Positions 12,853 to 49,513 of a DNA stretch of 64,000 bases are shown in pieces (the first letter of the stretch is position 1; each line of letters begins with the position of its first letter). The DNA is taken from assembly GCA_021817945.1 (NCBI GenBank), contig JAKAFL010000010.1, positions 25,363 through 89,362 on the forward strand. The letters are read 5' to 3'. The notes under the pieces were generated by a model that ran no database searches, had not been told where the DNA came from, and worked only from the letters and a program-made list of their open reading frames with translations. Position numbers and translations under genes: made by a program. The DNA comes from a bacterium. Its GTDB lineage: Bacteria > Verrucomicrobiota > Verrucomicrobiia > Limisphaerales > UBA11358.

Positions 12853-13023
12853 TTCCAAGCCCCGCACCGGCCGCTCGACACCATCGGCCCAATTATTTCG
12901 TTCGCCCGGAATGGACATCCGGGCAGGCAATTTTCGGGAAAATTTGCGAAATTTTTTTGTTTCCCAGATTTTTTCTTTCGCTTTTCTAATGTGTTAAGGC
13001 CCTAACCCGGCTAAATTTCTATC

Positions 13024-13479
13024 ATGGCTGATATCGTGAGCAATCCCAAAGCCCGCCGTGATTACCATATCCTCGAGGTTTTCGAGGCTGGAATAGTCCT
13101 GCAGGGAACAGAGGTAAAGGCCTTGCGCGCAGGCAAGGGCCAAATGGGTGATGCTTTTGCCCGGGTCGAGAAAAATGAGGTCTGGCTGTACAACGCTCAC
13201 ATAGACGAATATAGCCACGGCAACCTTGGAAACCATGTTCCCAAGTCCCCCCGCAAACTTTTGCTGCATCGCGCCGAGATTCGCAAAATATTTGGCCTGG
13301 CTTCGGTCCAAGGCCATGCCTTGGTGCCCCTGGCTTTTTACTGGAAAAACGGCAAAGTGAAGGTCTCCCTGGGAGTTGGAAAGGGGAAACTGGCTTATGA
13401 CAAACGGGAGGACCTCAAGAAACGCGATTCGGACAGGGAGCTTAAGCGGGCCGGAATGAAATGGTCCAAGGGAAAATAA
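13024..13479 (+). CDS. smpB: SsrA-binding protein
   Basis: 151 aa. NPKARRDYHILEVFEAGIVLQGTEVKALR...HIDEY...NH.P.R.RKLLLH..EI, canonical SmpB. Confidence 0.95.
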   Translation: MADIVSNPKARRDYHILEVFEAGIVLQGTEVKALRAGKGQMGDAFARVEKNEVWLYNAHIDEYSHGNLGNHVPKSPRKLLLHRAEIRKIFGLASVQGHALVPLAFYWKNGKVKVSLGVGKGKLAYDKREDLKKRDSDRELKRAGMKWSKGK

Positions 13480-13819
13480 AAATCGAGTATAGAGTGGAGT
13501 GGTTTAGGAAAATCTCCGGGGAGGGAGCAAGGCTTTTCGGTTATTGGCGATGGAACACCCATTTGTGACCGGGTTTTGACCCGGCCGGATCACAGGGAAA
13601 AACCATGACTTTTCGCCCCTGCCAACCAACCAAAATACACGCTGCAAACAAACTACAGGGCTGAAAGTCTTTTCAAAACGACCCGTTTCAACTTCCACTC
13701 CCCCATTCCAAACACTTCGCCAGCAGAGTCAGGCAGTGGGTTGGTCTGCCGACAATTCATGCCTCGGGGATACTTCAGGGCAAGCCCTGTTTCCTCTGGT
13801 TCCTGAGCGGTTCGCTGAA

Positions 13820-14089
13820 TCAGGCTTTGCCTGCCGATTCTTTCTTCCAAGTGCGGCGCGGGGCCTTGGTGACCAAGCCCTTTTTGAGGGCGCTGGCAGC
13901 CACGCGCACATAGCGCACCTCGCCATTGGGAAGAATGGCCTTCACACGCTGGAGATTCACCATGAAACGACGTTTGGTGATCGCCGTGACGTGGGTACCA
14001 ATACCTCCGGACTTTTTAGATTTACCACTGCGCCAGATAATGCTGCCCTTCATCGGGCGTTTGCCGGTCATTTCACAAATGCGTGCCAT
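13820..14089 (-). CDS. rpmB: 50S ribosomal protein L28
   Basis: From the ATG at 14089: MARICEMTGKRPMKG...THVTAITKRRFMVNLQRV, the L28 N-terminal signature (M.+.C..tGK+p..Gn...). Confidence 0.88.
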   Translation of the reverse strand: MARICEMTGKRPMKGSIIWRSGKSKKSGGIGTHVTAITKRRFMVNLQRVKAILPNGEVRYVRVAASALKKGLVTKAPRRTWKKESAGKA

Positions 14090-16238: not shown

Positions 16239-16314
16239 TGGGGTGGCCGACGGGATTCGAACCCGCAACAACAAGCTCCACAAGCTTGGACTCTACCATT
16301 GAGCTACGACCACC
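16239..16314 (-). tRNA. tRNA-His (anticodon GTG)
   Basis: Reverse complement folds as a cloverleaf: G(-1)-GTGGTCG-TA-GCTC-AATGGTA-GAGT-C-CAAGC-TTGTGGA-GCTTG-TTGTT-GCGGG-TTCGAAT-CCCGT-CGGCCAC-C-CCA. The G-1 is encoded and pairs with C73, which is the His identity element. The CCA is encoded. Confidence 0.92.
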
Positions 16315-35841: not shown

Positions 35842-36193
35842 TGGTGGAGGCGGCGGGAGTTGAACCCGCGTCCCAAGTCAACCAACCAGCCGCGACTACA
35901 TGCTTAGCCCGGGATTTTTTTTCTGCATCGCGATGGCGCCCGGGCACGAGTCGCTTTGCCTAGTCCGCATGAAATTTCTCGGCTGACTGCGCGCGGTCCC
36001 CGCATTCAACCATGCCTGCTGTTGCGTTCATCCACCTTAGCAGGCGTGGAGCAGTGAACGTCACGGCACTTAGGCCGCGAGGGCTAATTCTTCGTTAGCT
36101 TTTTTGTTTTGATGCGATGATTAACGAGGCCAACGCATCGTCCTCGGCATGCCGCCTCTGGCGTGTTCACATGGTCGAAACCAGTACGCCCCC
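35842..36193 (-). ncRNA. ssrA: tmRNA (SsrA)
   Basis: The reverse complement starts GGGGGCGTACTGGTTTCGAC and ends GGGACGCGGGTTCAACTCCCGCCGCCTCCACCA. The 7-bp acceptor stem has a G3:U70 pair, and there is a T-arm GCGGG-TTCAACT-CCCGC. The internal tag frame ...AAA AAA GCT AAC GAA GAA TTA GCC CTC GCG GCC TAA encodes ...ANEELALAA. Confidence 0.92.
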
Positions 36194-36608: not shown

Positions 36609-37016
36609 TCACTTTGGACCTGGGGCAGCCTGACTGGAGCTTGGGTCAGCGGCTTGCGGAAGCAGAGAGCGGACGCGACTTTCCAACCGGTCCAGGTCGA
36701 GTGGCTTGGTGAAAAAATCCTCCACCTGCATGGCAGTTGTGCGTTTGGTTACCTGGCTGGAAAGGGCGCTCATGAAGATGACGGGGATTTTTCGCGTGGA
36801 TGGCTGGCGTTTAAGGATTTCACAGACGGACAACCCATCCAAGTCGGGCAGCAGGATGTCCAGCAGAATCAAATCAGGTTTGAATTGCCGGGCTTGGCTC
36901 AGGGCCTGGACACCATCATTTGCGACCAAAAAATCGCATTTCAAATCGGCAAGGCGGAACTTGACGAGTTCAATGAAGTCCACCTCGTCATCGACAATCA
37001 AAATCTGTCTTGTCAT
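36609..37016 (-). CDS. single-domain response regulator (CheY-like receiver)
   Basis: From the ATG at 37016: MTRQILIVDDE...LILLDILLPDLDG...IFMSA...KP. No output domain. Confidence 0.85.
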   Translation of the reverse strand: MTRQILIVDDEVDFIELVKFRLADLKCDFLVANDGVQALSQARQFKPDLILLDILLPDLDGLSVCEILKRQPSTRKIPVIFMSALSSQVTKRTTAMQVEDFFTKPLDLDRLESRVRSLLPQAADPSSSQAAPGPK

Positions 37017-37125
37017 AAACCACAAGTTAACCCTTCGATGAATGATGACAATAGCGAAGCGGTTAAAGTGCGGTTACGAAACGGAGACATCGGCAGCCAG
37101 GCGGCGGGAGGGTAGGCGACCGCCA

Positions 37126-37910: not shown

Positions 37911-39317
37911 TCAGGCAGGTGAATTGTTTTTTCCATTCCACCCGAACAACTTTTTGGTGCGGATCATTTCAAAAATGGGTGCGGGTATGATTTCGGAGAG
38001 CTTTTCATCGCCTGCATGAATTTTGGCCAGAACATCGCTGGAATAAACTTTCAAAGCTTCCGGGTTATGGTTGGGGATGTTGGCGATGAAACCGTTTTCA
38101 AGAAGATGCGCGTAAAGGTGGCGAATATTTTGGGCCACCTCCAATGTCTCCACCGTGGTGAGTTTGCCCGTGACCTTGTCGAGCGAGGGGTAAACATAAA
38201 GCTTGGCCCCATTTTTAAAAAGCTGGCCCAGGGATTCCATCAGGCCGCCCGGAAGGTCTGTGTAAAATTTTTCATCAAACACATCCCGCAACCGCACCAG
38301 GCCGATGGGAAGGCCAATCGGACGGTCAGTCTGCCGGGAGAGGTAGGTGACCAGCCGGTGGTAGCGTAGGAAGTTGGAGATCATCACCGGCTTGCCCAGC
38401 GCTGCCAGGGTGTCAACCCGGTCCAGAAAATCTTGATGATCAATTTTATTGCCCACCTGCAACTGGCGCAGGGTCATTTCAAATAAAACCACGGGTTGTT
38501 CGCCGGGGGCGCATTTTTCACGGATAAAATGTTCCTGCCCGCGTTCCATCATATCCAACATTGGGTTGGTGAGGGGACGGAAACTGCCGCGCTCCACAAG
38601 GACAGGCTTTTTCCACAACAATTCGCCGGGGATGATGGTTTCGCCGTCTGCGGTGAACATGGCGGCTTCCGTGAGCCATTGCTCCACCAGTTGAAGGGCC
38701 ATGAGCCGGTTATCCACCTTGGTGAAGGCTGGCCCGGAAAACTTGATCATGTCCACTTCCACCCGGGCGCTGGAAAGGTCATCCAGCAATGAGCCGATAA
38801 GCTCGGCTGGGTTGGCGCTTTGATAGAAAGCTGCATGGAGCAGGTTCACCCCGATGATGCCCAGGGCTTCCTGCTGGCGGAGGCTTTCCTTGTCCAGGGT
38901 GCGGACGTGAATGATGATTTGGGAAGGCTCCTCGCGGATATGGGACTGGAATTTCACGCCCAACCAGCCTTGGCCTTCATCTCTTTTGGTGGCCACGGTG
39001 TCGGCAAAGACAAAAAACGCACACTTTTCCCCACGGGAGGCATCCAATCGCTTCAGTAAAAGATCATATTCCAAGTCCAGCATGGACTGGAGACGCTTGC
39101 GGCTGACGTAACGATCGGATTTCCCGTAAATGGCATCGCTTACGGACATGTCGTAGGCGGAAATGGTTTTGGCCACGGTCCCCGAGGCTTTGCCGACATG
39201 AAAGAAGCGGCGGGCAACCTCCTGGCCAGCGCCAATTTCTGCAAATGTGCCATATCGTTTGGCATCCAGGTTAATCTGGAGGGCCTTTTCATCAGTGTTC
39301 ATTTTTTCGCCGTTCAT
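37911..39317 (-). CDS. conserved protein of unknown function
   Basis: From the ATG at 39317, 468 aa. No TM helix or signal peptide. The strongly protein-like N-terminal block INLDAKRYGTFAEIGAGQEVARRFFHVGKASGTVAKTISAYDMSVSDAIYG is one I recall as conserved in uncharacterised proteins, but I cannot name a family. Confidence 0.75.
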   Translation of the reverse strand: MNGEKMNTDEKALQINLDAKRYGTFAEIGAGQEVARRFFHVGKASGTVAKTISAYDMSVSDAIYGKSDRYVSRKRLQSMLDLEYDLLLKRLDASRGEKCAFFVFADTVATKRDEGQGWLGVKFQSHIREEPSQIIIHVRTLDKESLRQQEALGIIGVNLLHAAFYQSANPAELIGSLLDDLSSARVEVDMIKFSGPAFTKVDNRLMALQLVEQWLTEAAMFTADGETIIPGELLWKKPVLVERGSFRPLTNPMLDMMERGQEHFIREKCAPGEQPVVLFEMTLRQLQVGNKIDHQDFLDRVDTLAALGKPVMISNFLRYHRLVTYLSRQTDRPIGLPIGLVRLRDVFDEKFYTDLPGGLMESLGQLFKNGAKLYVYPSLDKVTGKLTTVETLEVAQNIRHLYAHLLENGFIANIPNHNPEALKVYSSDVLAKIHAGDEKLSEIIPAPIFEMIRTKKLFGWNGKNNSPA

Positions 39318-39455
39318 ATTGCTTTCCTTTCTTCGCTGAACCGAGAGTAATCCAGTCAGCAACCATTGTTCAATACCGCAATCAAACCATGAATGGACCG
39401 GGTTGGGTGGAATTCTGGTCTTTCCGTCCCTTTTTGGGACGCTATAATCAGGGAC

Positions 39456-40535
39456 ATGTATCGTACGCAGGACCTCCACGTCAAAGAAATCGTGCCATTG
39501 CTTTCGCCAAGGGCGCTGCGAAATTTAATGCCCACGCCGGACACAGCCAATGCCACAGTGGCGCGCAGTCGTGAACGCGTCATTCGCATTCTGCGCCAGG
39601 AAGATCCCCGGCTGCTGGTGGTCATTGGCCCCTGCTCCATTCATGACCAATCCAGCGCCATCGAATATGCGCGCAAACTCAACGCGCTCCGCATAGAACT
39701 GGCAGACCGGATGGAAATTGTGATGCGCGTGTATTTCGAGAAACCGCGCACCACCATAGGCTGGAAGGGGCTCATCAATGATCCGCACCTCGATGGTTCC
39801 CAGGATATTGGCACGGGACTGCAGATTGCCCGGAAACTTTTATTGGAGATCACGGAAATGGGCATGCCTGCGGCGACGGAATTCTTGGATCCCATTGTGC
39901 CGCAATACATTGCGGATTTGGTGACATGGGCGGCCATTGGGGCCCGCACCACGGAATCCCAAACACACCGTGAAATGGCCAGTGGATTGTCCATGCCCGT
40001 GGGTTTGAAAAACAGCACGGATGGGAGTTTGCAGGTGGCGATTGATGCGATGAATGCCACGAGTCATCCGCATAGTTTTCTGGGGATCAATGAGGATGGT
40101 TTGACCAGCATAGTGCGCACGAACGGCAATCCCCATGCGCATGTCGTGCTAAGGGGCGGCAGGGCCATGACGAATTACGATGCGGCCAGCATCAAGGCGG
40201 CGGAGGAGAAATTGGAGCGTGAAAAACTGCCCCGGGTGCTGATGGTGGATTGCAGCCACGCCAATTCCTCGAAACAATTTGCGCGACAGGAGGACGTCTG
40301 GCACAGCGTGATTGAACAGCGGGTGCAAGGCTCCAAATCATTGATTGGGCTGATGGTGGAAAGCCACCTTCACGAGGGAAACCAACCCATCACCCAAGGG
40401 TCAGCCCAACTGAAATACGGGGTCAGCATTACCGATTCATGCATCGGCTGGGAAACCACCGAACGCATGCTTCGGTGGGGGCATGAAGCCTTGACCAGAT
40501 TATTTGACGAAAAAGCTTTGTCTCCAAAAGCTTAA
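39456..40535 (+). CDS. aroG: 3-deoxy-7-phosphoheptulonate (DAHP) synthase, class I
   Basis: From the ATG at 39456: MYRTQDLHVKEIVPLLSP...RLLVVIGPCSIHD...YFEKPRTT.GWKGLINDP...GARTTESQ.HRE. Collinear with E. coli AroG/F/H. Confidence 0.93.
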   Translation: MYRTQDLHVKEIVPLLSPRALRNLMPTPDTANATVARSRERVIRILRQEDPRLLVVIGPCSIHDQSSAIEYARKLNALRIELADRMEIVMRVYFEKPRTTIGWKGLINDPHLDGSQDIGTGLQIARKLLLEITEMGMPAATEFLDPIVPQYIADLVTWAAIGARTTESQTHREMASGLSMPVGLKNSTDGSLQVAIDAMNATSHPHSFLGINEDGLTSIVRTNGNPHAHVVLRGGRAMTNYDAASIKAAEEKLEREKLPRVLMVDCSHANSSKQFARQEDVWHSVIEQRVQGSKSLIGLMVESHLHEGNQPITQGSAQLKYGVSITDSCIGWETTERMLRWGHEALTRLFDEKALSPKA

Positions 40536-41806
40536 AAGTGGTAGCCAACAGATAGGGACAAGGTGGGAGAGAAAAGCCGAAATCTCGAATAGGCAGACTG
40601 GCCCGCTTGACCTGCTGCCGACATTCCGGTGAAGGGATTTGAATTTGCCGCAGAAGGCGTGATGGTGCGGGAAGACCCGGCAATAACCTGCGCAGCCGCC
40701 GCCCAATCCCAGTTTTTACCGTCTCTTCCCACGCCAACACTGCCCACACTCAATGCCGTGTCAGGAACCGCAGGGGTAAAATACGTGGAAGGTGAGGTTT
40801 CCGTGGAATAAAAATACCCGGCACTGACGAACCACCCGTTTTCTAGGTATCTGGTCACACCGAATTTGTACTGGAAACTGTCCCGCCAATGCAATGGAAG
40901 GGAAAGATCCTGTCCAAATATTTGCCTGGTGCCGGAGAGATTAACCACCCCCACCGTGTCCCAATTGATGTAGTCGAGATCAAATTCAATGTTCCAGTTG
41001 GAAGTCGGCCGGTAGGAGATGCCGACGGAGGCAGTTTGGGGGAAAGCCAAATCGGCACTGGTGCCTGCGGATGCAGATGGACCGGATCCATTATTGTAGG
41101 ACGAATTGCCCTGAAAATCCGTAGTGGTGGACAAACGATAATTTCCACCAATGGAAATTTGATCCAAAGGCTGCCACAGAATCCCGGCAGTCAGGCCATA
41201 GGAGAAACCATCGCCCGAAAACTGGAAAAAATCGTTGTTTGAGAAAAGACCACGATTGAATTTAATGTCTGCATAATTGATCGTGGGACCAATGGCAATC
41301 GACAGGGATTTCACAATTTTCCATGAAACCACGGGATTGACAGTGAGATAGGTGAGTTGTGAATCAATGGCAAGAGACCGCAAATCGGAACTGGCGGGCC
41401 AAGTGACACCCAAACCAAACGGAGAATAAACCCCTATTCCAAACGACAAAGGCGAATTTGTCCCAGAATAGGTCAAATAAATTTGAGGGACAGGGGTGAT
41501 TTTGAAATTAGATTCTGCACCTGGACCATTCTGGGGGGAATAAAAGGAATCAATTCCGATATAGTTCAGGACTCCAACTTCCACATCTAAACCCGAAATC
41601 TGTGATATGCCTGCAGGATTGTAGTACACTGCTGAGGGGTTGTCCGCAGTGGCAACGAAGGCGTTACCCCTACCAATGGCAAAAGCATCCTGGTTCGGTA
41701 ATAAAAATCCAATGGCTTGGGATTTATGCTGGATAAAGCACAAAAAGAGGGCCAATAAACCAGAAACAGTTGAAAATTTTTGCTTGTTCTTAAATTTTGG
41801 TTTCAT
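40532..41806 (-). CDS. outer-membrane hydrophobic-compound channel, OMPP1/FadL/TodX family
   Basis: 424 aa with a signal peptide. The N-terminal hatch motif GRGNAFVATADNPSAVYYNPAGIS is the FadL signature (NPAG). Contains beta-strand-rich Y/G/S repeats and ends ...SVGYHF. Confidence 0.85.
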   Translation of the reverse strand: MKPKFKNKQKFSTVSGLLALFLCFIQHKSQAIGFLLPNQDAFAIGRGNAFVATADNPSAVYYNPAGISQISGLDVEVGVLNYIGIDSFYSPQNGPGAESNFKITPVPQIYLTYSGTNSPLSFGIGVYSPFGLGVTWPASSDLRSLAIDSQLTYLTVNPVVSWKIVKSLSIAIGPTINYADIKFNRGLFSNNDFFQFSGDGFSYGLTAGILWQPLDQISIGGNYRLSTTTDFQGNSSYNNGSGPSASAGTSADLAFPQTASVGISYRPTSNWNIEFDLDYINWDTVGVVNLSGTRQIFGQDLSLPLHWRDSFQYKFGVTRYLENGWFVSAGYFYSTETSPSTYFTPAVPDTALSVGSVGVGRDGKNWDWAAAAQVIAGSSRTITPSAANSNPFTGMSAAGQAGQSAYSRFRLFSPTLSLSVGYHF

Positions 41807-41970
41807 TTAAAAAGAAAAAACTCTCTTGGTAATCGCAGACTTCGCCTGTCTCGTTTTTGGACAATAAGTTTTAATTTTTGTTAACATTTCACCGCACCTG
41901 AAGCAGCAGAAGTGCCATGCATGCTTTGCAAGCGAAATAAAGATTATTATTCCATAATCTTGCCTTTGGT

Positions 41971-43488
41971 GTGAAAAATGTTTCATTTGAAAGGGTGAGC
42001 ACTGCATTAAACACAAATGTTGATAAAAAGCATAGGAACGGATCCATTTCTCCGTCAAATGGCAATAAAGTGCAGAAGAAAGATAGTGGGTTGAACCAAG
42101 ATGCTATAATTTTGATCAACAAAGAAAACGGGTTTTCTTACAAGGCTTTTCCAATAAGCATTGATTTGCGGTCAATTGTTTTTGAATGTTTTAACCGCGG
42201 GTTGAAACCGAAACCGACTGAATCAATTGAGAATTTTAAATTAATATTTAATGACATCCTTGTTTACGAAGGGGAGGCGATCATTTGTAATGTGATTGAT
42301 TGCGGATCTAAATTTATATGCGAGGGAGTCCTTCAGAGGGCTGCATGGATAGATGAGTCGGTTGACGCATTAACAAATTTTAGTCGAAATTCGATTGAAA
42401 ACGGGACTTTTTTGGAAAAGATTAGAAAACCTTATTGCATTGAAAATGAATATAGACTGGCCGTATGTAAAATTGAGGACTTTTTGCGGAGTTTAAAAAA
42501 CCTCTGTGATTTAGTCTCATGCCGAATTTCATCAGGCCCCAAAAACAATTATCCAAGGTCTGAGAATGAAGCCGCCCTTGAAATGAGAGATTTTTCAACA
42601 CTTTCCTTGAAAACAATCTTTGAAGAATTTGAACTGGCCGCCCGAAAAATTCCATTAGATTTAAAGGAAGTTCACGCATTATACGCGCAAAGAGTTTTAC
42701 ATCCATGGCTGCTTTGCAGCCCATTAATAAATCGAACCTACGTGAAGCCTTTGGGGTACGCGGGGGATTACGAAATGATGAATATGCTCGTTAGAAACGG
42801 GCTTGAAGGGGCTAATCTATATGCAAAACTGGTGAACTCCTTTCTTTTGGATCAGCCTCCAGCGCATGCTGTTCGAAACAGGGTCAATTTCCTAAATAAA
42901 AGTATAATTAACGAATCATACAGAGTGGCTGCATCTGGTAAGCATGCCAATATTTACTGTATAGCCTGCGGTCCTGCATGGGAAGTGTCTAATTTTATAC
43001 AGGAAAACCCTCTTGCGAGGAATGCGAGATTCACCTTGTTGGATTTCAATCAAGAGACTCTGGACCATACCTCAACAAAAATCAGGAACATTTATAAAGA
43101 CAAAAAAATAAAATGTGAGCCTGTTTTTGTAAAAAATTCAGTTCAAAATATCATTAAAGCCGGAGCTTTGGGCAAATTAGCAAATAATAAATATGATCTT
43201 ATTTATTGCTCGGGTCTATATGATTACTTGACTGATTCGGTATGCAAGGCTTTAAACACCTGTCTTTTTGAAATGTTGAATCCAGGTGGCTTATTGGTTG
43301 TGGGGAATTTTGCAAAAACCACCCCAATAACAAATTTTATGGAGCATCTTTTGGAATGGAACCTCATATACAGAGACAAAGATGAAGTTTTGGCCCTTAA
43401 GCCCGAAACTGCTAGCACCTCGGAATGTGTGGTCAAAAGCGAACCATCAGGAACCAATTTTTTCCTTGAAGTTCGAAAACATGGCTGA
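41971..43488 (+). CDS. class I SAM-dependent methyltransferase with an N-terminal domain of unknown function (PhcB-like candidate)
   Basis: 505 aa, GTG start. Rossmann MTase motifs: I IYCIACGPAWE, post-I FTLLDFN, II YDLIYCSGLYDYL, III LNPGGLLVVGNF. Upstream block KPLGYAGDYEMMNML. The gene is very AT-rich compared with its neighbours. Confidence 0.8.
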   Translation: MKNVSFERVSTALNTNVDKKHRNGSISPSNGNKVQKKDSGLNQDAIILINKENGFSYKAFPISIDLRSIVFECFNRGLKPKPTESIENFKLIFNDILVYEGEAIICNVIDCGSKFICEGVLQRAAWIDESVDALTNFSRNSIENGTFLEKIRKPYCIENEYRLAVCKIEDFLRSLKNLCDLVSCRISSGPKNNYPRSENEAALEMRDFSTLSLKTIFEEFELAARKIPLDLKEVHALYAQRVLHPWLLCSPLINRTYVKPLGYAGDYEMMNMLVRNGLEGANLYAKLVNSFLLDQPPAHAVRNRVNFLNKSIINESYRVAASGKHANIYCIACGPAWEVSNFIQENPLARNARFTLLDFNQETLDHTSTKIRNIYKDKKIKCEPVFVKNSVQNIIKAGALGKLANNKYDLIYCSGLYDYLTDSVCKALNTCLFEMLNPGGLLVVGNFAKTTPITNFMEHLLEWNLIYRDKDEVLALKPETASTSECVVKSEPSGTNFFLEVRKHG

Positions 43489-46162
43489 AATGAATGCGGA
43501 TTTTCAAAAGGCATTTAAAGCCCAAAATCATAAGGATTTCATTTTTTATGCGAAAATTGGAATGGCAGCGTCCATTCCATTGAATCTTGTTTGCACTGCG
43601 ATGGATTTGGGGATGTATCCCAATAAAGCATCAAATTTATTTTATGCACGGCTTATTTGTGTTGCTTTCGTTTTTTTATCTTGGTTTTTCTTAAATAAAT
43701 CCAAAACTGTAATTAACCAAAGAATTTATGGGGTTGGTTGGTACGTATTTCCTCTGCTCATGATTCTTTGGATGATTTATTATATCAAAGACCCCATTTC
43801 GCCTTATTATGCAGGACTGAATATTGTGCTCTTGGCCGTCGGTCTTATGTCGCCTTGGACATATTTTCAAAATCTTCTTACTGCATTTTTGACGCTGCTT
43901 TTTTATTGTTTAATCGCATTTGATATCAATTCTAATGATCACATTAATTATATTATAAATAATTTGACATTTTTATTTTTGACGGCTGTGATTGTCGTTG
44001 TTGTCAGTTATGCCAATTTCAAACAGCGTCTTCGCGAGTTTTCACTTCGTTATGAGCTCGATGCGAATCGAAAAAGTATCGAGTCAGCAAACCAGAAACT
44101 CATCGAAATGGACCGGGTGAAGAGCCGGTTTTTTGCCAATGTCAGCCATGAAATGCGGACTCCATTGACCTTGTTGATCGGGCCGTTGGAAAACCTGGCC
44201 AGACGTTTGGGTCCTTCTGCAGACGCCGCGACCCGCGATATTCTCGCCTCCATGCAGAATAATGGCATGCGCCTTTTGAAGCTGATCAATGACCTTCTTG
44301 AGCTCATCCGCCTGGAATCCGGGCGTCTGGAGGTCAAACGCGAACCCCTGGAGGTTGTTGAATTCATCAATGGACTGGCCAGTGCCGTCCGGCAAATGGC
44401 GGCTGATAAAGGCATCACCCTGGAAACCACCGTTGAACCCGAATTGGATTCCATTTTGGGCGACCGTGACAAGCTTGAAAAAATCCTTTTAAACCTGCTC
44501 TTCAACGCCCTTAAATTCACCCCAACCAACGGGCACATCTGGTTAAAGGCCGGAGTGGTGGATTCGAATTATTACCTGGTTGTGCAGGACACAGGGATTG
44601 GCATTGCCGAAAAGAGCCTGCCATTTGTTTTTGATCGCTTTTGGCAGGAGGATGGATCTTCCAAGCGCAAATTCCAAGGTGTGGGCATAGGATTGGCATT
44701 GGTTAAGGAATTGGCCCAAAATATGGGTGGACAAGTATCCGTGGTCAGCGAATTGGGCAAGGGGACCACTTTCACCGTGCGACTTCCGCTTGAACGGCCG
44801 ACAAAATCTGACTTTGCCTCTCTTCCTGCTCCCGCCGTCGGCGTAGAGAATGGCCAGTCCCAAACCGAAGAATGGCTGGTAAACCTGTATCGCCGGGCGG
44901 AATTTTTCCCCACATCGGCAAACAAGCCGGCCTCGGCCCGCGAAAAAATCGCCGCGCAAAATGGCCGTCCCGTGGTGCTGGTGGCGGATGATGAGCCTGA
45001 CATGCGCCGGTTTTTGGTTTCGCAATTGGAGGGTTATTATGAAGTGGTGGAGGCCGCGGATGGCAATGAAGCTTCTGAAAAGGCGCAAAGCATCCTGCCC
45101 GACGTGATTTTGTTGGACTTGATGATGCCGCACAAGGATGGGATGCAGGTCTGCCAGGAACTCAGGGAATATGCACCCACCTCGACCATCCCAGTCATCA
45201 TGCTTACCGCCCGCGCCGATGAGGAAATCAAATTCAACGCCTTAAAAACGGGTGTTAACGATTTCCTGGCCAAACCCTTTTCCACGCACGAGCTTCAGGC
45301 ACGAATCCGGAACCTCATCGAGTCGCACCAGTTCCAGAGAAAATTAACCAGGCAAAACGCGGCATTGTCCAATGCGATTGAGCAGATCAAGGAAACGGAA
45401 ATGCAACTGGTTCAATCGGAAAAACTTTCTTCGCTGGGGCGCATGAGCGCCGGCATCATTCATGAAATCAACAACCCCCTGAACTTTTCGCTCACCGGTT
45501 TGTTTGCGCTGCGCGGAAAATCCAAAAAACTGCCCGCGGAGGAGCAGGAGGATTACAATGCGATAGTCAATGACGTGGAGGAGGGCTTGAAGCGGGTGCG
45601 CAACATTGTTTCGGACTTGCGCACCTTCACCCATCCTGGCGGCGGAACCGGTGAACCGGTGGAGGTCTTGGACGTGGTGGATGCCGCGCTGCGGTTTTTG
45701 GGCGGGGAGTGGCGGGACACGGTATTGATCCAGAAGGAAATTCCTGAAAAGACGGTCATGTGGGCCAATCGCAACAAGCTGATCCACGTCCTGGTGAACC
45801 TGGTGCAAAATGCCATTGATGCCATGCGTGAGAAAAGCTATTCACAGGGAGACCAGCCGCGCATTCACATCACCGCTGGCACGGAAAACGTCCGCACCTG
45901 GGTGAAGGTGCGGGACAACGGACCGGGCATAGACCCTGGAAACACCGGGAAAATATTCGACCCCTTTTTCACCACCAAAGAAGTGGGCAAAGGCATGGGC
46001 CTGGGATTGAGCATTTGTTACCGGATCGTGAAGGATTACGGCGGCAATATTTCGGTGGACAGCCGTCCGGGCCAGTTTTGTGAATTCACGCTGGATTTTC
46101 CAGCCAACGCGGAAGCCGCAACTGAAATGGAGATGGAACATGGAGAACTTGTACGATTATAA
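43481..46162 (+). CDS. hybrid sensor kinase: 6-TM sensor, HisKA/HATPase, receiver, second HisKA/HATPase
   Basis: The ATG at 43481 overlaps the methyltransferase stop (ATGGCTGA). About 6 hydrophobic helices in the first ~180 aa. First kinase: H-box FFANVSHEMRTPL, N/G boxes NLLFNALKF, DTGIGI, GVGIGLA. Receiver: VLVADDEPDM...LLDLMMPHKDG...KP. Second kinase: H-box SAGIIHEINNPL with NLVQNAIDA, DNGPGI, GMGLGLS. Confidence 0.9.
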   Translation: MAEMNADFQKAFKAQNHKDFIFYAKIGMAASIPLNLVCTAMDLGMYPNKASNLFYARLICVAFVFLSWFFLNKSKTVINQRIYGVGWYVFPLLMILWMIYYIKDPISPYYAGLNIVLLAVGLMSPWTYFQNLLTAFLTLLFYCLIAFDINSNDHINYIINNLTFLFLTAVIVVVVSYANFKQRLREFSLRYELDANRKSIESANQKLIEMDRVKSRFFANVSHEMRTPLTLLIGPLENLARRLGPSADAATRDILASMQNNGMRLLKLINDLLELIRLESGRLEVKREPLEVVEFINGLASAVRQMAADKGITLETTVEPELDSILGDRDKLEKILLNLLFNALKFTPTNGHIWLKAGVVDSNYYLVVQDTGIGIAEKSLPFVFDRFWQEDGSSKRKFQGVGIGLALVKELAQNMGGQVSVVSELGKGTTFTVRLPLERPTKSDFASLPAPAVGVENGQSQTEEWLVNLYRRAEFFPTSANKPASAREKIAAQNGRPVVLVADDEPDMRRFLVSQLEGYYEVVEAADGNEASEKAQSILPDVILLDLMMPHKDGMQVCQELREYAPTSTIPVIMLTARADEEIKFNALKTGVNDFLAKPFSTHELQARIRNLIESHQFQRKLTRQNAALSNAIEQIKETEMQLVQSEKLSSLGRMSAGIIHEINNPLNFSLTGLFALRGKSKKLPAEEQEDYNAIVNDVEEGLKRVRNIVSDLRTFTHPGGGTGEPVEVLDVVDAALRFLGGEWRDTVLIQKEIPEKTVMWANRNKLIHVLVNLVQNAIDAMREKSYSQGDQPRIHITAGTENVRTWVKVRDNGPGIDPGNTGKIFDPFFTTKEVGKGMGLGLSICYRIVKDYGGNISVDSRPGQFCEFTLDFPANAEAATEMEMEHGELVRL

Positions 46163-47396
46163 AAAATTTGCGGTGCTGTATGTGGATGATGAAGAGCGGT
46201 CGCTGACCAGCTTCACCCGTGCTTATGGTGAAACATTCCGGGTGTTCACCGCGAACAGCGCCCAGGCGGGCATCAAGATTTTTGAGGAACACGCGGACGA
46301 AATCGGCATTTTGATGACGGACCAGCGCATGCCCGGGGAGAAGGGCGTCTGGCTGTTGGAGCGGGCGCGGCAACTCCGTCCCCGCACCCTGCGAATCCTG
46401 GTCACCGCCTTTGCGGACATGGATGCCGCCATCGCCGCCGTGAATGAGGGCGCCATTTACAAATACCTCAATAAGCCCTGGGACCCGGTTCAATTGGAGA
46501 TGACCCTGCGGCAGGGCCTGGAATTTTTCATGGTGCAGGCGGAGCGCGACCAGTTGCTGGCGGAAAAAATGTCCGTGCTGCGAAACATGATGATAGCGGA
46601 CCGGGTGGTGAGCCTGGGGCTGCTGGCGGCAGGCCTCAGCCATCATATCCGCAACTCAATGGTGGCGGTGAAAACATTCCTGGAACTGGCTCCCATCAAG
46701 ATGGCTGAAGAACGGGACGGCGGGAACACGGGGCTGCGGGACCCGGATTTCTGGCGTGAATACCATCAGAATGTCCAAGGCCAGATTGAAAAAGTGAACG
46801 TCTTGCTGGCGGATTTGCGCACAGCGGCGGAAGGTTCCAAGTCAGCCGATCCTTTCCCCGATGAAATTCATCCCAAAGCCATTTTGGCGCAAAGGTTGGA
46901 AGGCATGGCCGAAGCTTTTGGTGCGCGGCGGATCACCGTGGAGAACCAAATTCCTGATTCCATTCCCCTCATGCGGGTGGATCAGCGCAAATTTGAGCGG
47001 CTGGTGGATCTTTTGCTGAAGGATGAACTGGCCATGTTGCCGGCGGGCAGCCGTATTACTTTGACGGCTGAGGTGCAGGAAGAACGCATGGTCCTCCGGC
47101 TGGTGGACAATGGGCCTGCCCTGCCTCCGGCGGCTTTGCAAGTGGTCTGTGATCCATTCAATGTCACAAGCGGCGTGCCCTCCGAGTACGGAATCAACCT
47201 TATGGCCTGCTTTTTTCTAGCCCATCATCATGGCGGCAAGGTGGAAGCCCACAGCCATCCTGGAGGCAACACATTCACTGTCCGAATGCCGCTCAAACCT
47301 GTCCGTCAGGCTGAGACCACAGAGGAAGACACCAGTTTCCTTAGGCGTTCTTTCATGAACAATGAAATGTGGACCAAGCTTATTTCCAAGGGGTAG
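46140..47396 (+). CDS. response-regulator receiver fused to a degenerate histidine-kinase-like domain (PhcR-like architecture)
   Basis: The ATG at 46140 overlaps the preceding gene by 23 nt. REC: VLYVDDEERSL...LMTDQRMPGEKG...KYLNKPW. C-terminal H-box-like AAGLSHHIRNS. The ATP-lid motifs are degenerate: LLLKDELAML for the N box, DNGPAL for G1, GINLMAC for G2. Confidence 0.85.
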   Translation: MENLYDYKKFAVLYVDDEERSLTSFTRAYGETFRVFTANSAQAGIKIFEEHADEIGILMTDQRMPGEKGVWLLERARQLRPRTLRILVTAFADMDAAIAAVNEGAIYKYLNKPWDPVQLEMTLRQGLEFFMVQAERDQLLAEKMSVLRNMMIADRVVSLGLLAAGLSHHIRNSMVAVKTFLELAPIKMAEERDGGNTGLRDPDFWREYHQNVQGQIEKVNVLLADLRTAAEGSKSADPFPDEIHPKAILAQRLEGMAEAFGARRITVENQIPDSIPLMRVDQRKFERLVDLLLKDELAMLPAGSRITLTAEVQEERMVLRLVDNGPALPPAALQVVCDPFNVTSGVPSEYGINLMACFFLAHHHGGKVEAHSHPGGNTFTVRMPLKPVRQAETTEEDTSFLRRSFMNNEMWTKLISKG

Positions 47397-47962
47397 AAGA
47401 ACGGCCCGGATCCCACGCCGCTCTGTGCCTGGATTTTAAAATGCATTGATGGCACCGCTGGCATTCCCGGATGGCTGCTGCGGTCTAAAAAAGTTCCGCA
47501 AACCTTTTTGGACGGATTTCGTCCCTTTGGGCAGGCAATGGAGTAAAACCCTTTCATGAAACAGGCAATGGGCGCGGATTGAAAAAATCCAACGCTGGCA
47601 AAAATCACTCAAAAAACGAAGGTTGTAAACGCCTGACCGAAAAGGACGTTGGATGTTGTTGGGAAGAGGCAAAGGATCAAATGGCGATGCGCAACAAACC
47701 AGAATAACCAATTGGAATCCTGGACTTGGGAGCAATGAAGCCAGGCGTCTATTGCGTGATAACCTTCCACTGGGCATGCACCTGGTCAGAGGTCCCGGAC
47801 ACAGACCCGTAACGGTCCCGTCATTTTCGTCGCCCAATTCTAACAATTGTCACGTTTACCCTTCCCGGAATCCGTGATCAGATGGTTCCACAGCCTCACA
47901 CCCGGGGCTGAATTAGGAAACGCAAACAAACCAAACGAACAATAAAAAGCAAGGATACACAC

Positions 47963-49513
47963 ATGAAAAAATCAGGAAATACCCAGGCGCTGCGCACTTT
48001 CAGAAATGCGCGGCTTGTTTCTGGCGCAGGGATGGCGGGAGTTTTGCTGGCCAGCCACCTGGCCTTGGCGGATGGGGATGATCGCCACTGGTCAAGCCAG
48101 GTGAACCAGGTGGGGGATGTTTTTATTATTGCCCTTGAAAACCATAATTTCACCCAACCCAATCCCACGGCCACGCCCCAACAGATTTTCGGCAACCCTG
48201 CCGCTCCTTATCTCAACAGTCTGGTGACGCCGGGCAACCCCAATTCGGCTCAAGTTTCCTATGCCTCGCATTATTTCAATGCCGGCACCGGGGTTCACCC
48301 CTCGGAACCCAACTACGTTTGGGCCGAGACAGGGACGGATTTTGGCTTCCATTCTGATGCCGACCCCAGCTACGCCAACGGAAATAAATTTTATGATAAT
48401 TCCAGCTCGTTGATCAGCTCCCTGAATGCCAGCGGCAACCAGGTTTTGACGTGGCATTTTAACAGAACGCCCCATCTGGTTGCGCAACTGGATGCAGTCG
48501 GCATTCCCTGGAAAAATTACCAGGAAGACGTTTCGCTATCCCAATCACCCACCAATAGCGCCTATGGCACCAACGGGCCTGTGAATCCTTTCAATGGCAC
48601 CACCCAGTACAACTACGCTCCCAAGCACAATCCCATGGCGTTCTTCACCGAAAGCGCCTTTGCCAACGTCTATGAATTGTCGCAATTGTTCACGGATTTG
48701 GCCAATAACACGGTTGGCCGCTACAACTGGATCACCCCAGACCAGTATAATGAGGCCCATAGCCCGCTGAATAATGGCTTCACTTACAACGGGGTGCATT
48801 ATACGGGCGACCAATCATCCGTGGCCTCTGCAGACAATTTCCTTTCCCATGTGATCCCGCAAATCATGGCATCCAAGGCCTATCAAGACAACGGTGTCAT
48901 CGTCCTTTGGTGGGATGAATCTGAAGGTGGCGACACGACGTCCCAATCCGTTCCCGAAATCATCATCTCCCCGCTGGCGAAGGGCAACGCCTATGCCAGT
49001 CCCGTTGCCATGAACCATTCCTCCGACATCAAAACCTGGGAGGAGGTTTTCGGCCTGCCCGCGCTTAACAATCCAATCCCCGCCACTGAGACAAACGTGG
49101 AGCAAGCTGGTGTCTTCAACAATGTTGCCACCGTGAACGATCTGAGCGACCTGTTTGTTCCGGGAGCCATTCCAACCAACGCCTTCTCCGTGACAAGCGA
49201 AGGTTTTGTGACGGATGGACGCAACGGCCACAAAAAGGAGACCCTCCGCATCACAAACACTGGCTCCACTGCAGTTTACAATTCTATCTGGATCGCCTTG
49301 GACAACCTCACTCCGGGTGTCACGCTGTTGAATGCTGATGCCAACACCGAAGTTCTGGCCCCCTTGGGCAGCCCTGCGGTCAAACTGAACGACGGCGACG
49401 ACAACATTTTGCGCCCATATCAAAGCCGCAAAGTAACCTTGGAATTCCTGGATCCCAACTCTGACCCAATCACCTACGACCCCCGTGTCCTCAACGTTGA
49501 ACCGGCTCCTTGA
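47963..49513 (+). CDS. secreted phosphoesterase-family protein (AcpA / phospholipase C-like)
   Basis: 516 aa with a signal peptide. The motifs ALENHNF and HPSEPNYVWAETG are typical of the phosphoesterase family. The last ~110 aa form an extra beta-rich domain. Confidence 0.75.
   Translation: MKKSGNTQALRTFRNARLVSGAGMAGVLLASHLALADGDDRHWSSQVNQVGDVFIIALENHNFTQPNPTATPQQIFGNPAAPYLNSLVTPGNPNSAQVSYASHYFNAGTGVHPSEPNYVWAETGTDFGFHSDADPSYANGNKFYDNSSSLISSLNASGNQVLTWHFNRTPHLVAQLDAVGIPWKNYQEDVSLSQSPTNSAYGTNGPVNPFNGTTQYNYAPKHNPMAFFTESAFANVYELSQLFTDLANNTVGRYNWITPDQYNEAHSPLNNGFTYNGVHYTGDQSSVASADNFLSHVIPQIMASKAYQDNGVIVLWWDESEGGDTTSQSVPEIIISPLAKGNAYASPVAMNHSSDIKTWEEVFGLPALNNPIPATETNVEQAGVFNNVATVNDLSDLFVPGAIPTNAFSVTSEGFVTDGRNGHKKETLRITNTGSTAVYNSIWIALDNLTPGVTLLNADANTEVLAPLGSPAVKLNDGDDNILRPYQSRKVTLEFLDPNSDPITYDPRVLNVEPAP

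Follow-up and report, generated by a model that had tools for sequence, protein, structure and literature searches.

Do four neighboring genes in a 64-kb stretch of bacterial DNA (the window, by which we mean the whole stretch analyzed) make up a quorum-sensing module of the type known as Phc in Ralstonia, and why is part of this module so unlike that of its closest relatives? The genes code for a FadL-family channel and, divergently transcribed from it, an S-adenosylmethionine (SAM)-dependent methyltransferase, a hybrid histidine kinase, and a protein in which a receiver is joined to a kinase-like domain (Table 1). PhcB makes methyl 3-hydroxymyristate or methyl 3-hydroxypalmitate, and PhcS is a membrane histidine kinase. 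The initial annotation of the window, made from its sequence alone, had likened the module to Phc in a PVC-type host, and our open reading frame (ORF) calls confirm its positions for the four genes, for the two start/stop overlaps and for the divergent gap of 164 bp. The methyltransferase and kinase genes overlap by ATGGCTGA at 43481-43488, the kinase stop codon at 46160-46162 is overlapped for 23 nt by the third gene, whose ATG is at 46140, and the NCBI annotation of the same contig has lengths of 505, 893 and 418 aa for the three plus-strand genes. The host belongs to Verrucomicrobiota, going by the organism names on the closest named homologs (Verrucomicrobiota or Verrucomicrobiae). From the comparisons below we regard it as virtually certain that the module is a Verrucomicrobiota member of the Phc operon family, and we find that its channel, methyltransferase and sensor domain behave as an exchangeable cassette.

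The methyltransferase aligns with PhcB of R. pseudosolanacearum (P0467) over 460 aa, from its N-terminal barrel to the C-terminus and with the non-catalytic N-terminal domains included, at 28% identity (E = 2e-64), and profile-profile comparison by hhalign matches it to a Burkholderiales PhcB group over 452 columns (E = 5e-111). An alignment that includes the Paraburkholderia ortholog has 66 invariant columns, among them those of the motifs KPLGYAGDY, CGPA.E and LDF. A comparison with unrelated class I methyltransferases, proposed with the initial annotation, puts the enzyme far nearer to PhcB: Pfam returned only weak generic class I models (E of about 1e-4), a PDB sequence search gave nothing better than E = 0.33, and no NCBIfam model matched at E <= 0.01. 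The kinase sensor on its own matches residues 20-203 of PhcS (29% identity, E = 4e-18) and, by hhalign, Burkholderiales PhcS sensors over 196 columns (probability 100%, E = 2e-40). Residues 23-436 of the kinase align with PhcS 20-439 (26% identity, E = 4e-34), but its second core is much the more similar part (617-874 against PhcS 186-439, 40% identity, E = 5e-58). The third protein aligns with almost the whole of PhcQ (12-341 against 11-330, 33% identity over 347 aa, E = 2e-43) and with the first part of PhcR (12-180 against 11-163, 33% identity, E = 4e-24); by hhalign it matches PhcQ over 172 columns (E = 8e-49) and a PhcR group over 346 columns (E = 1e-48). These alignments show the methyltransferase to be a PhcB homolog, the kinase to combine a PhcS-type sensor with a PhcS-like core, and the third protein to be a PhcQ/PhcR homolog, although they share only 26-40% identity with the Ralstonia proteins and come from another phylum.

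The Ralstonia reference is an R. pseudosolanacearum locus, L171, which encodes PhcB, PhcS, PhcR and PhcQ of 467, 442, 374 and 336 aa (PhcQ at 12941-13951); in the R. solanacearum species complex PhcB is 464-468 aa, PhcR 368-374 aa and PhcQ 336-337 aa (PMC8578825). Before it was found, orthologs from Cupriavidus (467/447/377/335 aa) and Paraburkholderia served as proxies; PhcB homologs of the three genera are 64-100% identical (PMC6989110). In L171 the residues R22, L161 and R154 stand at the positions named in PMC6989110, so the mismatch at R154 and L161 in the Cupriavidus proxies is an offset in the proxies.

The gene order in the window is that of Phc: methyltransferase, six-transmembrane (TM) sensor kinase, receiver/kinase-like protein. 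To survey synteny, as had been suggested for the four genes, we predicted ORFs in 165 related loci and assigned their types from BLAST matches to domain segments. A PhcS-type sensor kinase gene follows the methyltransferase gene in all 141 loci with room downstream, that is in 80 of 80 genome loci (the best 80 from a scan in which each GTDB species was represented by one genome, with no Ralstonia among them) and 61 of 61 metagenome loci. The receiver/kinase-like third gene is present in 40 of 41 metagenome loci, and a FadL gene lies no more than 2 kb upstream of the methyltransferase gene in 43 of 45 (on the same strand in 34, and divergent as in the window in 9). The GTDB scan found a methyltransferase relative in 498 species representatives, and the same core operon appears in them. 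A first protein search gave 777 methyltransferase homologs, the best non-self match being 51% identical, and the family forms 559 clusters at 50% identity (E <= 1e-30). A tblastn search of plasmids added Paraburkholderia graminis, in which a full-length relative precedes genes for a 445-aa kinase and two receiver proteins.

The nearest homologs of the third protein, 83% identical, are in loci that share the window's flanks, with the order 470-aa gene, 3-deoxy-D-arabino-heptulosonate 7-phosphate (DAHP) synthase, FadL, methyltransferase, kinase, third gene. Compared with two relatives, L166 and L167, the proteins of the window fall into two classes. Identity is high for the 468-aa protein (89%, L166 only), DAHP synthase (86-87%) and the third protein (81-83%), and also for the second core (75-76%), receiver (78-83%) and first core (66-67%) of the kinase; it is very low for FadL (26-42%), the methyltransferase (33-34%) and the sensor domain (30-32%). 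Along the kinase, identity to L166 is 0.2-0.44 as far as the junction between the sixth TM helix and the dimerization and histidine phosphotransfer (DHp) domain, at residue 200, and then jumps to about 0.76. BLASTN against the same two loci gave matches of 73-78% identity at 37928-39318, 39440-40493 and 44090-47299, but within 40494-44089 it found nothing in L166 and a single 73-nt match in L167 (42710-42781).

The same contrast recurs among the relatives. Six genomes whose third proteins are 81-95% identical and whose DAHP synthases are 85-94% identical have at least five types of methyltransferase/sensor and at least three types of FadL. For example, L168 and L170 are 91% identical in the first core, 96% in the receiver, 91% in the second core and 94% in the third protein, but only 40% in the methyltransferase, 47% in the sensor and 27% in FadL. 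L166 and L167, both from sample ERZ26871208, have similar methyltransferases (71%) and sensors (83%) but FadL proteins that are only 26% identical, so FadL can be exchanged apart from the synthase and sensor. Mantel tests on 47 loci gave a strong correlation between methyltransferase and sensor distances (r = 0.83, P = 2e-4), which persisted when the kinase core was held constant (partial r = 0.70, P = 2e-4; r = 0.86, P = 2e-4 in the FadL-linked subset of 22 loci). Methyltransferase and third protein, given the sensor, are uncorrelated (47 loci, r = 0.04, P = 0.14). In 16 loci FadL correlates with methyltransferase plus sensor given the core (r = 0.39, P = 2e-4), but not significantly with the core given methyltransferase plus sensor (r = 0.19, P = 0.11). 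As judged from these identities and distances, the comparisons show FadL, methyltransferase and sensor domain to have been exchanged between lineages as a unit, independently of the kinase core. A decoupling of synthase and sensor phylogeny from the downstream parts is also seen in the Ralstonia complex, where PhcB and PhcS trees follow signal type and those of PhcR and PhcQ follow phylotype (PMC8578825).

Exchange of this kind would be expected of pherotypes, in which lineages use different signals and the synthase, channel and receptor of each have to fit its signal molecule. We therefore consider it probable, from the homologies and the exchange pattern, that the module carries out Phc-like signaling by a hydrophobic ester, with a pherotype-style specificity cassette. 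In such a system the methyltransferase would esterify a fatty-acid-derived carboxylate to a neutral, hydrophobic ester, which would leave the cell, and the FadL-family channel would let it through the outer membrane's lipopolysaccharide leaflet. On reaching the inner membrane the ester would partition into it and bind the loop-less sensor. The first core would autophosphorylate and pass the phosphoryl group to the internal receiver, which might gate the second, PhcS-like core and so signal to the receiver of the third protein. With its DHp histidine kept and its ATP site crippled, the third protein would probably act by phosphotransfer or protein binding rather than as a kinase, perhaps by analogy with PhcQ, which binds and stabilizes PhcA (for the binding, PMC13320629).

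The module could instead sense and process an exogenous hydrophobic compound rather than a self-made signal, with FadL importing a lipid or aromatic compound from the environment or a host, the sensor detecting it, and the methyltransferase modifying it or, as in the esterification of a toxic free fatty acid, making it harmless. FadL/TodX channels are classical routes of fatty-acid and hydrocarbon uptake, the tie between FadL and the operon in the metagenome loci is tight, and the structural neighbors of the methyltransferase, which are generic small-molecule and polyketide synthase (PKS) methyltransferases, do not fix a biosynthetic role. We nevertheless think this unlikely. PhcB, the homolog of the methyltransferase, synthesizes a signal, and loss of phcB by mutation removes the autoinducer (PMC8578825, PMC6989110). 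Moreover, methyltransferase and sensor diverge together, to 30-50% identity, while the housekeeping flanks stay at 85-94%; such co-divergence is typical of private signal/receptor pairs and is hard to square with a shared environmental substrate.

On compositional evidence the window genome holds a recently imported, GC-poor version of the cassette. GC content drops from about 0.53-0.57 to 0.33-0.43 between approximately 41.55 and 44.1 kb, and is 0.383 in the methyltransferase and 0.348 in the sensor domain (third-position GC, or GC3, of 0.37 and 0.34) as against 0.535 in the rest of the kinase and 0.562 in the third gene (GC3 of 0.64 and 0.68). Could fast, relaxed evolution or an amino-acid bias have produced the low identity and low GC in place, with no exchange at all? 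Membrane domains are T-rich, with an AT skew of -0.17 to -0.31 over the sensor, and sensor domains often change more rapidly than kinase cores, but the methyltransferase is soluble and equally GC-poor, and the composition difference between methyltransferase and kinase genes has a median of -0.005 in 119 other loci, the largest real value being about -0.08. Nucleotide homology vanishes abruptly at both edges of the cassette, and the parts of the locus are incongruent: the window methyltransferase has 48-54% identity to its counterparts in loci where third-protein identity is 73-81%, but only 33-35% in the loci with the closest third proteins (81-83%), and L127 and L123 have third proteins that are 92% identical, yet the sensor nearest to that of L127 is the one from L114. 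We consider evolution in place very unlikely, and continue with exchange of the cassette.

An assembly chimera or artefact as the source of the arrangement and GC dip was ruled out: the window matches a contig of the metagenome-assembled genome (MAG) GCA_027457565.1, and the same protein set is present on 16 contigs from several independent assemblies. A milder GC dip, confined to methyltransferase and sensor, occurs in L168 (4913-6950; 0.46 against 0.53-0.56), so a cassette of foreign composition is not peculiar to the window genome.

The methyltransferase had been described as a class I SAM-methyltransferase with an extra N-terminal domain, which agrees with its AlphaFold model (pLDDT 78.9): a disordered N-terminus is followed by a six-stranded beta-barrel (46-121), a helical domain (139-321) and a Rossmann methyltransferase domain (326-502). 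Pfam found nothing for the barrel region (aa 41-140) even at E = 5, and its PilZ-like look is an impression from the modeled fold. Foldseek searches of the model against PDB returned generic small-molecule and PKS O-, C- and N-methyltransferases, neighbors that would fit a small-molecule substrate but do not say which. That the enzyme is instead a protein methyltransferase of the CheR kind, tuning the adjacent kinases in an adaptation system, is scarcely credible: a weak Pfam CheR match (E = 0.005, below the cut-off) and one Paraburkholderia homolog deposited as 'MCP methyltransferase, CheR-type' point that way, but the match covers just 60 residues of the SAM-binding region in the shared Rossmann core, full-length homology and fold lie with PhcB and with small-molecule enzymes, and the ORFs and Pfam matches of the locus include neither helices like those of a methyl-accepting chemotaxis protein (MCP) nor a CheB partner.

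Several points count against our reading of the locus as a Phc-like ester-signaling operon. At 28% identity to PhcB, the substrate of the methyltransferase could differ. The only pointer to co-transcription of the three plus-strand genes is their overlapping codons, which would suit an operon. Scans for promoter and terminator consensus sequences gave counts within the expectation from shuffles, and we claim no promoter in the 164-bp gap because the promoter scan was not enriched. The Mantel tests correct only incompletely for phylogeny. The order of the phosphorelay is conjecture, since the double-kinase hybrid has no characterized counterpart in Ralstonia. No phcA gene adjoins the operon, though a PhcA-like LysR or other DNA-binding output was not searched for in the window. 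Finally, the window lacks the gene that comes after the operon in its closest relatives: a REC-GAF-PAS-HisKA-HATPase gene (approximately 677 aa) directly follows the PhcQ-like gene in L166-L170 (L166 10398-12431) and is found in many other relatives, but in tblastn searches of the window it gave only generic kinase-domain matches inside the hybrid kinase.

The channel belongs to the FadL/OMPP1/TodX family: it matches Pfam PF03349 (E = 1.8e-42) from position 4 to position 383 of the 421-position profile, with 145.8 bits where the cut-off is 29.7. Within the family it is not an ortholog of E. coli FadL, scoring 39.2 bits with the equivalog model NF007988, whose cut-off is 585. Its proposed partnership with the module holds for the clade from which the 80 metagenome loci come, whose nearest named homologs are from Verrucomicrobiota with one from Acidoferrales, but not more widely. 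FadL is absent from the Ralstonia locus L171, so that an attached channel gene is a difference between the window and Phc, and it is upstream in only 3 of 76 genome-set loci, which are mostly from Burkholderiales, other Proteobacteria and Planctomycetota. A FadL gene lies directly upstream of a phcB-like gene in L038, L074 and L082 (Paraburkholderia oxyphila, a Chromatiaceae MAG and a gammaproteobacterial MAG), so that more than one phylum shows the association.

The kinase differs from PhcS in layout. PhcS has a simple, non-hybrid layout of approximately 442 aa, whereas the 893-aa window protein has, by Pfam, HisKA and HATPase_c domains, a Response_reg domain and a second HisKA/HATPase_c pair, so that an additional classical core and a receiver stand between the PhcS-type sensor and the PhcS-like core; the earlier equation with PhcS is right for the sensor and that core only. 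Both layouts exist among relatives, with simple kinases of approximately 450 aa in 32 of 46 complete metagenome relatives and sensor-kinase-receiver-kinase hybrids of approximately 880 aa in the others. The first core and receiver look inserted, because the core of the simple form resembles the second core of the window protein. Six membrane helices with almost no external loops had been noted in the sensor, and a hydropathy scan places them at residues 20-38, 53-71, 82-100, 106-124, 131-149 and 158-176, with loops of 5-14 aa. Both cores have canonical ATP boxes in a box alignment, and the translation of the internal receiver shows the acidic pocket, phospho-acceptor Asp, Thr and Lys all in place. 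Receiver and second core together (497-874) also align with PhcR 9-374 (27% identity, E = 1e-25). Precomputed annotations list the MASE8 domain (PF20968) for both the window kinase and Ralstonia PhcS. In our rescans all scores were below the gathering score of 26.2 (10-14 bits for the window, 17.6 bits for L166 and Paraburkholderia), each of these matches spanning essentially the whole 154-position profile, and a MASE8 scan of Ralstonia PhcS gave no match at E <= 1.

The third protein was first likened to PhcR. It does have the PhcR-type layout (Response_reg, HisKA and HATPase_c in Pfam) but in sequence it is nearer to PhcQ, and there is a single receiver gene after the window kinase where Ralstonia has separate phcR and phcQ genes, so the window protein may stand for both. 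The receiver proteins of both systems lack a DNA-binding domain. The DHp histidine is kept (SHHIRNS), but the ATP boxes are degenerate, as had been suspected: the N-box Asn is replaced by Asp (LLLKDELA), G1 reads DNGPA, and G2 is EYGINL instead of GxGxGL. Five aligned relatives carry the same changes, except that G1 is DxGPG in some of them, and the claim thus holds; the PhcS and PhcR orthologs in the alignment, which are from Cupriavidus and Paraburkholderia, have canonical boxes. Since PhcQ residues 11-330 align to the window protein, the C-terminal half of PhcQ looks like a decayed DHp/ATPase; the window protein keeps a full, degenerate ATPase domain, whereas PhcQ has lost the C-terminal part of its own. 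This suggests a view of PhcQ as a decayed receiver-kinase that may help to explain its mechanism in Ralstonia. PhcQ Arg154, a site of adaptive mutation (PMC6989110), appears by eye, through the Cupriavidus PhcQ alignment, to line up with a conserved Arg (ADRVVS) of the window protein.

Phc was described as 'unique' to the R. solanacearum complex in a 2024 review (PMC11298618), and homologs have been discussed in Cupriavidus and Paraburkholderia only (PMC6989110). Our literature search found no Phc-type system described outside Burkholderiaceae, and no described quorum-sensing system for Verrucomicrobiota. KEGG-based pipelines already give such proteins the names PhcB and PhcQ: JGI calls many methyltransferase homologs 'EF 3-hydroxypalmitic acid methyl ester biosynthesis protein' (the KEGG phcB name) and homologs of the third protein 'probable response regulator PhcQ'. 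What we found described nowhere is the hybrid double-kinase receptor, the linked FadL gate and, above all, the pherotype-like cassette. Its exchange argues, on evolutionary grounds, that the adjacent sensor has the product of the methyltransferase as its ligand, and the related loci provide natural synthase/sensor/channel triples for direct comparison of products. More tentatively, it is possible that PhcB-made lipid esters are a large unexplored autoinducer family in Verrucomicrobiota and several hundred lineages of Acidobacteriota, Planctomycetota and Proteobacteria, and that in Verrucomicrobiota channel, synthase and sensor form a mobile cassette creating mutually unintelligible 'dialects' among related, co-occurring populations. 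If so, pherotypes would be known for the first time with a lipid signal and in a locus that has its own outer-membrane gate, and a channel that co-varies with the signal synthase would be a new element of quorum-sensing architecture.

The closest precedents for the cassette are Staphylococcus agr and Bacillus comQXP, which show specificity ('pherotype') polymorphism. As in the window, the hypervariable block comprises the signal-producing gene or genes and, from the receptor kinase, the sensor part alone, between conserved flanks, with a breakpoint at the junction of sensor and kinase core and several types among close relatives. The differences are that agr and comQXP use unrelated proteins and peptide signals in Gram-positive hosts, whereas the window block adds an outer-membrane channel and diverges more deeply between types (approximately 33% protein identity). 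The alpha-hydroxyketone systems CqsA/CqsS of Vibrio and LqsA/LqsS of Legionella also have a hydrophobic, fatty-acid-derived autoinducer, a six-helix sensor kinase without a periplasmic domain, and a synthase gene adjoining the sensor gene, but their synthase is a pyridoxal phosphate-dependent acyl-CoA transferase and not a methyltransferase, and we liken them by description, not by sequence. FadL homologs mediate uptake and perception of long-chain acyl-homoserine lactones in rhizobia (PMC9938287, PMC5977203); there too a FadL-family channel is the route of a very hydrophobic quorum signal across the outer membrane, but fadL lies outside the synthase/receptor locus, whereas in the window it is linked and co-varies with synthase and sensor.

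Table 1. Features of the Phc-like locus and its surroundings in the window (one-based positions; aa, amino acids).
Feature	Position	Strand	Details
FadL-family channel gene	40532-41806	-	ORF call; 424 aa; signal peptide; divergent from methyltransferase
Divergent intergenic region	41807-41970		164 bp; AT-rich, GC 0.35; presumed promoters of both transcription units
PhcB-family SAM-dependent methyltransferase gene	41971-43488	+	505 aa
Hybrid kinase gene	43481-46162	+	893 aa from ATG; ORF opens at 43382
Kinase: sensor domain	43481-44095	+	aa 1-205; six TM helices, PhcS-type
Kinase: first core	44096-44890	+	aa 206-470; classical HisKA (SHEMRTPL) and HATPase_c; canonical N, G1 and G2 boxes (Pfam, box alignment)
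Kinase: internal receiver	44945-45325	+	aa 489-615; Pfam Response_reg, E = 4e-28
Kinase: second core	45326-46162	+	aa 616-893; NtrB/AtoS-like H box (IHEINNPL); part most like the PhcS core
Receiver/kinase-like third gene, PhcQ/PhcR-family	46140-47396	+	418 aa; ORF opens at 46080
Replaced specificity cassette	40494-44089		FadL, intergenic region, methyltransferase, sensor domain; from blastn, protein identity and GC
DAHP synthase gene	39456-40535		stop codon overlaps FadL stop codon
Conserved protein gene	37911-39317	-	468 aa; no Pfam hit; adjoins DAHP synthase
Stand-alone receiver gene	36609-37025	-	Pfam Response_reg, E = 6.6e-23
Signal-peptide protein gene	47963-49513		516 aa; no Pfam hit
tmRNA gene	35842-36193	-	168.6 bits
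tRNA gene	16242-16313	-	

Downstream of the module, nucleotide homology to the relatives ends at 47299, and the signal-peptide protein gene occupies the place where the relatives have their fourth gene (47397-49513 compared). The stand-alone receiver gene, 3.5 kb upstream of the module, is on all contigs of the source organism but is not beside the operon in L166-L170. The tmRNA and tRNA genes are the sole Rfam matches at gathering score in the window.

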